Shown here: piece by piece, positions 9,044 to 34,976 of the stretch | Layout of the letters: every line of letters begins with the position of its first letter | Position numbering within the stretch: position 1 is the first letter of the stretch | DNA from: a virus | DNA length: 64,000 bases | Reading direction: 5' to 3' (one strand) | IMG/VR virus record: IMGVR_UViG_3300025127_000012 | Notes under the pieces: generated by a model | What the model was told of the DNA's origin: nothing | The model's input: only the letters and a program-made list of their open reading frames with translations | Databases searched by the model: none | Translations under genes and position numbers: made by a program

Positions 9044-9234
9044 TACATTGAAGTCCTATTCTTGTTCTGTTGTCTCTTAATTCGCTCTTCTTCTTCCTTC
9101 AAGTGTCCTATTAATAGGTTGACATACACATCACGTTCCCATGGAATCATATCGTTTAACTCCGTCAAACTATACTTGTGATGCTGCATTAATGCGAAGT
9201 TCGTCTTATAGTGATTCATAAGACTGTCATGCAT
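9043..9234 (-). CDS. gp51: gp51-like baseplate hub assembly protein (possibly the C-terminal part of a gp26-gp51 frameshift product)
   Basis: NFALMQHHKYSLTEL..MIPWERDVYV.LL..HL motif. Confidence 0.85.
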   Translation of the reverse strand: MHDSLMNHYKTNFALMQHHKYSLTELNDMIPWERDVYVNLLIGHLKEEEERIKRQQNKNRTSM

Positions 9235-27104: not shown

Positions 27105-27128
27105 AGTTATTTATCCATGATATAGAAG

Positions 27129-27298
27129 GGTGGAAGGAGGGAATACATTTTACCCTCATGCTATGGGAATCGCTAGTGCGAAAATTAGTACATAACAACA
27201 ACAGTTCTATTGGTAATAGTTCTACCGAAGTAGCGGGCACCACCCCTAACTGTTTACATTACCCCGCCTAATTCCAACAGGGTTATTCAGTCACTTCC
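27129..27298 (-). ncRNA. manA-like RNA motif
   Basis: GGAAGTGACTGAATAA...GGTGGTGCCCGCTACTTCGGTAGAAC...ACCAAT...CCTTCCACC resembles the manA pattern as I recall it; 5' GGAAG pairs with 3' CTTCC; own promoter. Confidence 0.75.
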
Positions 27299-27450
27299 AT
27301 GTCGGTTGATCGGTCCGACACTGATAATATAGCAGACTCTTCACAGGTTGTCAACCCCTTATGAAAATTAATATGTAATGCCTCGATGAAGACAAGAGAC
27401 CCTACAATAATTAGATTACATACGGTCAGAGGATGGGTAAGATATTTCAC
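27283..27450 (-). CDS. Small membrane protein (55 aa)
   Basis: Hand-translated from GTG: MKYLTHPLTVCNLIIVGSLVFIEALHINFHKG...DMEVTE*; stop lies inside the RNA 5' end. Confidence 0.55.
   Translation of the reverse strand: MKYLTHPLTVCNLIIVGSLVFIEALHINFHKGLTTCEESAILSVSDRSTDMEVTE
27326..27354 (-). promoter_or_regulatory. Sigma70-like promoter of the manA-like RNA
   Basis: TTGACA-17nt-TATATT with TGn extension. Confidence 0.8.
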
Positions 27451-28723: not shown

Positions 28724-28821
28724 TAAGTAGGGCATCGAGGGTTAGATGCGAAACTTATTTCCAGAAATCCCTTACTTCTGGATAAAAGACGAAGTATTAT
28801 ACTGCCCATAGGTCTTGGTTG
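28724..28821 (-). ncRNA. PhotoRC-II-like structured psbA leader
   Basis: AAGAC...GTCTT, TCCAGAAGT-aaggg-ATTTCTGGA and GCATC-taaccctc-GATGC hairpins with complementary loops (AGGG/CCCT, pseudoknot); directly 5' of phage psbA. Confidence 0.7.
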
Positions 28822-28880
28822 AAGCAGTCTGGGATGGCGATCCTTTCGAGTCCCAAGATGTGAGGAAATCCTCACTGATT

Positions 28881-34292: not shown

Positions 34293-34415
34293 TTAGACCT
34301 CCTTGTTTACTTTAATTCCTCGATATACGAGTTGTGTTTGATCAGTGTTTACGTTTGTGTCCTTGCGTGTACGATTTGTGTCATACTGAACACCGCGATA
34401 AGTAACTTGTGCCAT
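34293..34415 (-). CDS. DUF4278 / 'Downstream peptide' (double YRG), 40 aa
   Basis: MAQVTYRGVQYDT...LVYRGIKVNKEV*; directly 3' of the glutamine aptamers. Confidence 0.85.
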   Translation of the reverse strand: MAQVTYRGVQYDTNRTRKDTNVNTDQTQLVYRGIKVNKEV

Positions 34416-34447
34416 TTGATTTTTAGTAATAGGATGTTTTTAAGATC

Positions 34448-34656
34448 CGTTCCTTCAATCTTTTGCGTCCTTACAATACACTCCTTGTACCTCACCAAAC
34501 TCATAGTAAAGATCAATAATTTCTTGTCTATCTTTATCACTAAGATCTGGATAGACCTTAGCACGATCTACAAGTTCATTGATGTCTCCACATGTAACGC
34601 TAACTGCACTGGCAGATGCTAATAATAAGGCAAGCATATGTATCATAGGATGAACG
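34448..34656 (-). ncRNA. Glutamine riboswitch-type aptamer 2 (glnA/Downstream-peptide family) with ORF in P2 loop
   Basis: CGTTCATCCT...AGGACGCAAAAGATTGAAGGAACG. Confidence 0.8.
34455..34646 (-). CDS. Secreted two-Cys small protein nested in aptamer 2
   Basis: Signal-like MIHMLALLLASASA; TC.D...C; stop codon inside aptamer 3' strand. Confidence 0.7.
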   Translation of the reverse strand: MIHMLALLLASASAVSVTCGDINELVDRAKVYPDLSDKDRQEIIDLYYEFGEVQGVYCKDAKD

Positions 34657-34659
34657 TAC

Positions 34660-34909
34660 CGTTCCGAGATTTACTTGCGTCCTATCTGTAAAGGTTCGCA
34701 ATTTCTATCTTCAACTTTGGTAAAGAAGTAATCAATAAGATACTCCTTAGCATCACGATTAAGGTTACTATCTGTTAGAACCTCAATCCTGTTGGTGTTC
34801 CACTCTTCACATGTCATCTGCCAGTGGGCAGGGTAATGTTCTGAGAGGAGCGTCGCTGATAGTGCGATACCAATCATAAGATGAACTTATGTTACACATA
34901 AGATGAACG
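34660..34909 (-). ncRNA. Glutamine riboswitch-type aptamer 1 with ORF in P2 loop
   Basis: (C)GTTCATCTTAT...ATAGGACGCAAGTAAATCTCGGAACG. Confidence 0.75.
34671..34877 (-). CDS. Two-Cys small protein nested in aptamer 1
   Basis: Hydrophobic N-terminus; MTCEE...L...K.YLIDYF...C; stop codon inside aptamer 3' strand. Confidence 0.7.
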   Translation of the reverse strand: MIGIALSATLLSEHYPAHWQMTCEEWNTNRIEVLTDSNLNRDAKEYLIDYFFTKVEDRNCEPLQIGRK

Positions 34910-34916
34910 TAATGTT

Positions 34917-34976
34917 ATTATATCATAACAATACTATTTATGCGAATTAACATTCTCTTAATGTTACAATCGCTAC
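34917..34976 (-). promoter_or_regulatory. Extended -10 promoter (TGA-TATAAT) with upstream NtcA-like site
   Basis: TGnTATAAT 34917-25; predicted start ~34910 at aptamer 5' end; GTA-N8-AAC at 34963-76; CATAAATA late-like box between. Confidence 0.6.

Follow-up and report, generated by a model that had tools for sequence, protein, structure and literature searches.

Introduction

Can whole protein-coding genes lie inside the helices of a metabolite-sensing RNA that is itself kept intact? The question is raised by a 64,000-nucleotide (nt) stretch of viral DNA, IMG/VR record IMGVR_UViG_3300025127_000012 (hereafter the window, meaning the whole stretch at its full length), in which the minus strand from 34910 to 34447 carries, ahead of a DUF4278 (IF17-like) gene, core nucleotides of the glutamine aptamer in two sets, each enclosing a small open reading frame (ORF; ORF A in unit 1 and ORF B in unit 2). 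We infer, at a probability of about 0.7, that this 464-nt operon leader is a nested double glutamine aptamer, and that glutamine would bind it and stabilise a fold that hides the starts of both ORFs and sets the expression platform of the DUF4278 gene.

The usual view of riboswitch aptamers is of compact non-coding domains, some 50–200 nt long, that fold during transcription. Group I and group II introns carry ORFs in peripheral loops, with a stem closing around the whole gene, and these ORFs encode homing endonucleases or maturases that serve the intron. The phage RNA differs from such introns in being a predicted metabolite sensor, in having start and stop codons that are part of the sensor, and in encoding small cysteine-containing proteins.

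Both kinds of glutamine riboswitch, type 1 (glnA, RF01739) and glutamine-II (Downstream-peptide, RF01704), usually target DUF4278 genes, and host glutamine riboswitches turn these genes on with glutamine (PMC6212724). Glutamine doublets, of which 157 have been reported, were treated as independent, pseudo-cooperative units (Sherlock et al., 2022; PMC9481103). In phages, one survey reported only two glutamine aptamers (McCown et al., 2017; PMC5473149), and a 99-nt RF01739 "glnA" match of 44.0 bits in cyanophage S-CREM1 was annotated as a single aptamer (PMC9964418). In the literature covered, which did not extend to Ames and Breaker 2011 or Ren et al. 2015, no description was found of genes inside a riboswitch stem or of a nested double core.

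A Phage Relative of the Glutamine Riboswitches

An earlier sequence-only reading of this DNA had described the locus as an interlocked tandem glutamine riboswitch, and all of the motifs that it listed were recovered on the minus strand where it had placed them. ACGCA...GGAACG halves accompanied by aptamer features occur only at these two places in the 64 kb (a third match to the regular expression, at 9165, lacks the features), and the ligand-contacting positions of the solved structures (C1, G2, the CGC strand, GGAACG and the linchpin; PMC6698751) are all present in both cores. Relatives were gathered through ORF B (68 loci) and through the junction pattern CGGAACG-N2-5-CGUUCAT (at least 119 stretches); parsing and removal of duplicates gave 127 unique complete elements, and the pattern-seeded loci provided a less biased subset of at least 87 unique complete double cores among the matches listed. 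Two alignments were built: A1, of 24 loci in which both units are compact, and A2, of 35 loci with both ORFs, the window included.

Natural relatives without ORFs were scored with the Rfam models in place of deleting the loops in silico. Those in which both P2 hairpins are compact scored 36.7–43.6 bits for RF01739, above its gathering score of 35 bits, which bears out the assignment of the cores to the glutamine riboswitches. P-TIM40, which lacks ORF A and has a compact unit 1 (CGUUCA, UCCC-UUAG-GGGA, CGCAAGUA...GGAACG), scored 31.2 bits for RF01739; the same unit scored only 22.3 bits for RF01704, and one relative reached 34 bits for RF01704, against a threshold of 33. Rfam returned no glutamine-riboswitch match for P-SSM4 or, even at E ≤ 10, for the window; that ORF-bearing forms would be missed by covariance models had been foreseen, and the window's failure is attributed to its ORF-sized insertions. 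A weak aspC match (24 bits against the 100 needed) was rejected as chance.

The outer core has the features of the glnA type. P2 follows CGUUC-A directly and closes beside ACG(G/C)A, with a loop of 190–220 nt rather than about 4 nt; one E-loop, AGUA/GAA flanking P3, belongs to the outer core, and the inner core has none of its own; and a long-range Watson-Crick linchpin pair caps P1. The CGUUC and GAACG strands of P1 are present and invariant in all relatives, and a Y[RK]G ORF lies downstream of the element in 122 of the 122 relatives with a downstream ORF found (of 127 unique). From the compact relatives that pass RF01739, together with this downstream ORF, we conclude on sequence grounds that the element is a widespread phage relative of the glutamine riboswitches whose P2 hairpins are optionally gene-bearing. 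The forms of units 1 and 2 in the 87 pattern-seeded loci were compact/compact (24), compact/ORF (46), ORF/compact (9) and ORF/ORF (8), so that 72% of these unique loci hold an ORF in one or both P2 loops. A pattern scan of genome contigs was uninformative on hosts (at least 80 matches listed, all non-cyanobacterial and chance-like).

Covariation Across the Nested Genes

In A1, 94.9% of cells were paired and 12 pairs were changed on both sides; none of 500 shuffles scored as high, and the value fell to 31–52% when the pairing was slid. A2, in which the helices close around the ORFs, gave 94.8% against 29–53% in slid controls. Two P3 pairs across ORF B occurred in A2 as GC 31, AU 3, UA 1 and as GC 31, GU 2, UA 2, and two P2 pairs as UA 34, GC 1 and as CG 26, UG 7, UA 2. 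Compensatory variation in relatives extends to the third P2 pair (CG, UG or UA) and the fourth (UA, AU or CG), and in one ORF A locus the closing U-A is swapped to G-C over 230 nt. Each of the 142 ORF-bearing units keeps a contiguous closing P2 stem of at least 3 base pairs, which in most of them reaches 5 or more.

The sequence-only reading had also proposed that AAUCU of unit 1 can pair with AGAUU of unit 2, locking the two aptamers together. The helix itself is real: flanked by AGUA and GAA, it is replaced in relatives by AGUCG/CGACU, AAUCG/CGAUU, AUUCG/CGAAU and GGACGG/CCGCCC, and a longer class of P3 has a third covarying position (U-A, G-C or A-U). A pseudoknot locking two self-contained aptamers is disfavoured, since linchpin covariation points to pairs that cross between the units (see below). 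In most sequences of the long class (e.g., L001, 1683-1690 with 1874-1884), two A.C or C.A mismatches stand at fixed positions of an 8-position helix, and in a few sequences these are repaired to A-U or C-G.

An extra helix inside ORF A, UCGCA with UGCGA in the window, which agrees with a pairing given by the sequence-only reading, likewise proved to covary, as U(C/U)(G/A)CA with UG(C/U)(G/A)A (columns 49-53 and 240-244 of A2; among the pair types are CG 20, UA 6 and GC 10, AU 10, GU 9); its 3′ strand is a conserved cysteine codon. P2, P3 and the internal helix of ORF A thus all vary in concert in homologous loci. The core nucleotides are invariant across the 35 ORF-bearing loci, in which mean column identity is 64%, and this invariance together with the covarying pairs sets the pattern beyond chance. 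Judged by its sequence, the element is a real, conserved and unusual variant of a known riboswitch class, and the structural claims made for it are strong.

Genes or Passengers

The nested ORFs are genes under purifying selection, since dN/dS (the ratio of nonsynonymous to synonymous substitution rates) is about 0.2: it ranges from 0.19 to 0.38 across all nested-ORF subfamilies, with 0.188 for the group of ORF A and 0.214 for that of ORF B. Together with the compensatory P2 changes across the ORFs, these values uphold the earlier claim that whole coding genes stand in the P2 loops. ORF A matches phrog_6471 (E 3.5e-26) and ORF B matches phrog_504; Pfam gave no match for either. The predicted structure of ORF B is a confident two-helix hairpin behind a hydrophobic N-terminus (predicted local distance difference test, pLDDT, 81.9), and comparison of this fold with the PDB gave no match at E ≤ 0.001, a two-helix hairpin being too generic. 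One BLAST cluster takes in 134 of 142 nested ORFs, and the ORF A and ORF B profiles align (E = 2e-4) with both cysteines matched, so the two are probably paralogues. A metagenomic protein of 109 amino acids (P0036) combines a homologue of ORF B with a DUF4278 domain, which reflects either read-through in gene calling or a genuine fusion.

The ends of these genes are built into the aptamer. The distance from CGUUCA to the ATG is 3–7 nt in 139 of the 142 ORF-bearing units and 10 nt in the remaining 3. The last codons of ORF A, GGA CGC AAG UAA, are aptamer core nucleotides, and the stop codon of ORF B (UGA, 34457-55) runs from the end of P3 into the GAA strand of the E-loop; throughout the family the stop falls within the E-loop strands, as UAA in AAGUAA (unit 1) or as U(G/A)A in CU(G/A)AAGG (unit 2). 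Synonymous diversity drops at the ORF ends (0.03 and 0.22, vs. 0.29 and 0.38 inside), and this drop and the location of the stops indicate that the end codons serve protein and RNA both. Conservation of the core is at the RNA level, because the nested ORFs of P-SSM4 and S-CAM3 stop earlier and the core nucleotides there are unchanged.

The genes might yet be passengers, a small family that settled behind a strong promoter in a P2 loop tolerant of insertions, with the riboswitch controlling the DUF4278 gene only. Free variation of P2 length and sequence in the compact forms fits this view, as does the gain and loss of ORFs between close relatives (L006 and L020 differ by ORF A alone), and with 134 of the nested ORFs in one family the placing of the AUG in the stem could go back to a single event instead of repeated selection. 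Against this view stand an AUG that stays paired with CAU while the adjoining pairs covary (UCCCAUG/CAUGGGA, UCUAUG/CAUAGA and UCUUAUG/CAUAAGA), stop codons that remain within the E-loop strands, and an ORF in 72% of the sampled elements; translation must physically unfold the aptamer whatever the selective reason. Mere passengers are on balance rather unlikely.

Probably Nested Rather Than Tandem Cores

Unit 1 has AGUA without GAA and unit 2 has GAA without AGUA, so that the two cores share a single E-loop helix. Because the P1 strands show no variation, topology was read from the linchpin pair, which covaries in the glutamine riboswitch family (PMC8250186) and was scored in each unit as X, the base in ACG-X-A, and Y, the base after GGAACG. 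Among the 127 unique loci, 108 have C/G/C/G and 17 have G/G/C/C (X and Y of unit 1, then of unit 2); 125 sets fit nested pairing, one has A at Y1 and one apparent exception is a parsing artefact. In A1, X1-Y2 is CG 18 and GC 6 and X2-Y1 is GC 24, and X1-Y1 and X2-Y2 are each unpaired in 6 of 24. The G/G/C/C sets are Watson-Crick only when each X pairs with the Y of the other unit, which favours the nested fold.

Given these sequence patterns, the RNA quite probably consists of an outer aptamer of the glnA type and a second core, circularly permuted, that caps the outer P3. The outer core would be a type-1 three-way junction, with P1 formed by CGUUC (34909-05) and GAACG (34452-48), P2 closed around ORF A, and P3, made of the AGUA/GAA E-loop and AAUCU/AGAUU, capped by the inner core in place of a loop. 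The inner core would have as its P1 the local hairpin GAACG-GUA-CGUUC, a P2 around ORF B, and its own ACGCA strand and linchpin pair; it keeps the circular order P1, A, P2, ACGCA, P3, opened at P3 and closed at P1. A junction-only circular permutation (AGGA...GGAACG-GUA-CGUUCA-UCCU) had been a candidate and was partly right, as the inner core, which does not stand alone. Rfam alignments of L104, L087 and L167 place a single aptamer over both units with an insert of 38–41 nt in P3, and RNAalifold run on the relatives gives the outer P1 plus a local GAACG-loop-CGUUC hairpin.

Two self-contained tandem aptamers, CGUUC(1) with GAACG(1) and CGUUC(2) with GAACG(2), locked by an AAUCU/AGAUU pseudoknot, would use the same strands. 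Both P1 pairings are equally possible by sequence, overall pairing is nearly as good (93.1%), the Rfam model aligns unit 2 alone in L072, L073 and L090 (36.7–38.1 bits), and the RNA might alternate between the two P1 pairings. The tandem arrangement would, however, leave G.G and C.C linchpin mismatches in 17 of the 127 loci (6 of 24 in A1), which become G-C and C-G when nested; the local GAACG-NNN-CGUUC hairpin forms first (probability ~0.96); the linker between the units, which is the loop of the inner P1, is fixed at 3–5 nt in the relatives; and the pairs predicted by RNAalifold are the nested ones. A tandem of complete aptamers is accordingly held to be unlikely. A relic without a working RNA fold, its flanks being duplicated cassette boundaries (like the promoter-stem-loop repeats by which T4-type phages shuffle genes), translation signals or conserved protein ends, is highly improbable: the motifs do recur where genes meet, the two nested ORFs are probable paralogues and the element sits in a variable region between nrdB and talC, but the cores are invariant though the ORFs have diverged to 35–65% identity, the long-range pairs covary, the ORF-less forms keep the motifs and pass Rfam, and the P-SSM4 and S-CAM3 ORFs stop ahead of the conserved nucleotides, which were thus not kept for coding.

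Folding Energetics and Contrary Evidence

The window RNA (486 nt) has a minimum free energy of −140.2 kcal/mol (z = −4.6), and the full nested fold, with all five helices forced, lies 3.4 kcal/mol above it in a model without tertiary contacts or ligand. The unconstrained fold already includes the inner P1 hairpin and the 13-base-pair inner P2 around ORF B, in agreement with the pairing of UCCU-AUGAUACAU with GUGUAUUGU-A-AGGA given by the sequence-only reading; in the unconstrained ensemble, pair probabilities are 0.85–0.97 for the inner P1 and 0.98 for the central pairs of the inner P2.

Several observations weigh against a nested double aptamer with glutamine-hidden start codons. The window's membership in the family rests on its relatives, its own RNA lacking an Rfam match. 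Both P1 helices are invariant and hence unable to covary, and a search for natural variants of CGUUC or GAACG as a test of the P1 partners found none. The choice of nested over tandem rests on one pair, changed in what seems a single clade and so perhaps in one event, and the Rfam alignments to unit 2 alone have scores similar to those spanning both units. The outer P1, which bridges 457 nt, has to compete both with ribosomes and with alternative folds, and the plain thermodynamic ensemble gives it a pair probability of about 0.08. Owing to a duplication at the 5′ end of the window's element, the start codon of ORF A lies outside the stem that closes the outer P2. The window's DUF4278 gene (upstream segment 34416-34431) lacks the AGGAG Shine-Dalgarno sequence that nearly all relatives have, with the GGAU/AUCC hairpin kept. 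Lastly, platform folding gives no consistent on/off direction: in the 100 loci having a Shine-Dalgarno sequence, its pairing went up in 25, down in 6 and was unchanged in 69.

Proposed Mechanism

The nested double aptamer would assemble from the inside outward. The inner P1 hairpin would form as soon as it is transcribed; after transcription of ORF B the inner P2 and inner core would close, then P3, and finally P1 and P2 of the outer core. The two cores are probably coupled, because the outer P3 would form only after the inner region has compacted. In the glutamine-stabilised fold both start codons would be buried, turning ORF A and ORF B off, and the folded state would set a small platform, located beyond the final GGAACGG, that controls the DUF4278 gene. 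A ribosome on ORF A would end at one strand of the E-loop, covering P3 and the inner P1, and a ribosome on ORF B would end at the other strand, covering the outer P1; translation and sensing would be mutually exclusive, because ribosomes on the two ORFs would unwind P2, P3 and the outer P1.

By analogy with the host riboswitches, from which the direction is taken, the folded state should favour the IF17-like peptide. A further and more tentative proposal, to which we give somewhat less than even odds, is that the sensor, with its two cores coupled through their shared P3, forms only around ribosome-free genes, so that the small cysteine proteins would be made at low glutamine and the IF17-like peptide at high glutamine, with translation state gating sensing.

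Features and Genomic Setting of the Locus

The features of the element and of its operon are collected in Table 1. The −10 box of the promoter ends 7 nt upstream of the first CGUUCA, and the transcript probably starts, from the promoter's position, near A34910; a TAnnnT box lies 4–10 nt (mostly 7–8) upstream of CGUUCA in 117 of 123 unique relatives. In 86 of the 123 the NtcA-box consensus GTA-N8-TAC stands 45–58 nt upstream of the first CGUUCA, mostly at a fixed distance, which suggests NtcA input in these relatives; the canonical GTA-N8-TAC is absent from the window, where 34948-34966 holds only the inverted repeat TAACATT-N5-AATGTTA. ORF A, ORF B, the DUF4278 (IF17-like) gene and two further small ORFs form a probable small phage operon.

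The partial duplication of 24 nt at the 5′ end of the aptamer (34875-34909), overlooked by the sequence-only reading, is lineage-specific and recurs in L004, L005 and L021. Its second UCUUAUG copy carries the AUG of ORF A (34877-75), and the full CGUUC is kept by the first copy only; CAUAAG between them can pair with either CUUAUG copy, and a local CAUAAG/CUUAUG hairpin is present in the minimum-free-energy fold. The duplication resembles a compact P2 hairpin fused ahead of an ORF-bearing P2. At the other end of the element, the GGAU/AUCC platform hairpin shares the last two G residues of the aptamer. Some relatives (L010, L013, L030, L045, L088 and others) have an optional module of about 45 nt between the second GGAACGG and the Shine-Dalgarno sequence of DUF4278, with a GNRA-capped hairpin, CGGAUCACUC-GCAA-GAGUUAAAGG.

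Table 1. Coordinates of the features of the riboswitch locus and its operon in the window.
Feature	Position	Strand	Remarks
Sigma-70-type promoter	34917..34946	-	TTCGCA, 18-nt spacer, TG-TATAAT; 10/12 matches
Outer P1, 5′ strand CGUUC	34905..34909	-	Partner GAACG 34452-34448, 457 nt downstream; partner assigned by linchpin covariation
Unit 1, 5′ side	CGUUCA 34909-34904; UCUUAU 34903-34898	-	
Outer P2, 5′ strand with 24-nt partial duplication	34875..34903	-	UCUUAUG, UGUAA, CAUAAG, UUCA, UCUUAUG
Inner extension of outer P2	34696..34867	-	UCGCA 34867-63 with UGCGA 34700-34696; covaries in relatives
ORF A, 68 amino acids, ends IGRK-stop	34671..34877	-	Hydrophobic N-terminus, two conserved Cys; inside outer P2 loop
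Outer P2, 3′ strand; junction strand; E-loop strand	AUAGGA 34685-80; CGCA 34679-76; AGUA 34675-72	-	Linchpin C34677
P3, 5′ strand AAUCU	34667..34671	-	Pairs with AGAUU 34461-57 across ORF B
Inner P1 hairpin	34652..34665	-	G-GAACG 34665-60, loop G-UA (linchpin G34659), CGUUC 34656-52
Unit 2 CGUUCA	34656-51	-	
Inner P2, 5′ strand UCCUAUGAUACAU	34638..34650	-	Holds ORF B start codon 34646-44
ORF B, 63 amino acids, ends KDAKD-stop	34455..34646	-	Hydrophobic N-terminus, two Cys; inside inner P2 loop
Inner P2, 3′ strand GUGUAUUGUAAGGA	34481-68	-	
Unit 2, 3′ side: junction strand; P3 strand; E-loop strand	CGCA 34467-64; AGAUU 34461-57; GAA 34456-54	-	Linchpin C34465
Outer P1, 3′ strand G-GAACG	34453-48	-	Outer linchpin G34447
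Probable expression platform	34416..34448	-	Hairpin GGAU/AUCC (34448-45 with 34435-32), then A/U-rich leader
DUF4278 (IF17-like) gene, 40 amino acids	34293..34415	-	Two YRG motifs; PF14105, 29.1 bits vs. cut-off 25.3
Hydrophobic ORF, 31 amino acids	34290-34195	-	Probable operon remainder
ORF, 59 amino acids	34192-34013	-	Probable operon remainder; phrog_6192
Intrinsic terminator	33994-33973	-	Probable operon remainder

The window is a T4-like cyanomyovirus of the ocean, in which nrdB lies upstream and talC downstream of the riboswitch locus, a region that varies. Its closest DNA matches are the Prochlorococcus and Synechococcus phages P-SSM3, P-SSM4, P-RSM3, P-HM1, S-CAM1, S-CAM3 and P-TIM40; in these records the nested ORFs are hypothetical proteins and the RNA is unannotated. 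Elsewhere in the window, also on the minus strand, are a manA RNA (27127-27320, 130 bits) and a PhotoRC-II RNA (28747-28840, 61 bits), and in P-SSM4 a manA RNA stands directly upstream of the homologous riboswitch locus.

Discussion

The phage element shares with type 1 (RF01739; e.g., the leader of Synechocystis gifB (IF17), PMC6212724) the outer order CGUUC, A, P2, ACG(C/G)A, AGUA, P3, GAA, GGAACG, linchpin, and also the downstream DUF4278 family and compact relatives that pass the model threshold. It departs from type 1 in a P2 loop of 190–220 nt that holds a translated gene, in a P3 capped by a second core, in a P1 that spans 457 nt, in a linchpin that is C:G in most phage loci, as in type 2, and in the window's lack of an Rfam match. 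Features in common with glutamine-II (RF01704; PMC6698751, PMC6212724) are CGCA as the junction strand, a C:G linchpin with GGAACGG, a plain helix beside the inner core, a marine picocyanobacterial host range (Synechococcus, Prochlorococcus) and a short DUF4278 target; unlike glutamine-II, the phage element has no conserved H-type pseudoknot, and the segment that follows its junction strand forms a helix with sequence preceding GGAACG, not with sequence beyond it. The window can form a glutamine-II-like AAGAUU/GGAUCUU pairing that is absent from S-CAM3 and P-TIM40, and the strand that follows CGCAA has its conserved partner in unit 1, farther upstream. Both the window and P-SSM4 have, downstream of CGCAA in unit 2, a local hairpin resembling that of glutamine-II, which was likewise rejected as the conserved fold.

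Like other tandem riboswitches (the glutamine doublets, PMC9481103, and tandem glycine), the element has two cores for the same ligand in one leader, and coupling is possible. Unlike independent tandems, in which each aptamer is complete and has its own platform, one core lies within the P3 of the other, a helix and E-loop are shared, the P1 partners are swapped between the repeats, the linchpins cross and the linker is only 3–5 nt. The length and score of the S-CREM1 "glnA" match are those of the compact double core of L104 and L087, and ORF-bearing forms were not reported there; judging from this agreement, the "glnA" RNAs of about 99 nt annotated in cyanophages (PMC9964418) are probably compact double cores.

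Covariance-model surveys undercount phage riboswitches: one of them counted two phage glutamine aptamers (PMC5473149), against at least 87 double cores here, of which 72% bear genes and are hidden from Rfam. Selection has kept this sensor intact even though its helices span 200–460 nt of translated sequence. If the proposed mechanism is right, the element would be a natural case of direct competition between ribosome and aptamer, and a reciprocal switch in a single RNA with nitrogen-dependent outputs; it would give cyanophages a route for reading the nitrogen status of the host, probably acting on glutamine synthetase through the IF17-like peptide.

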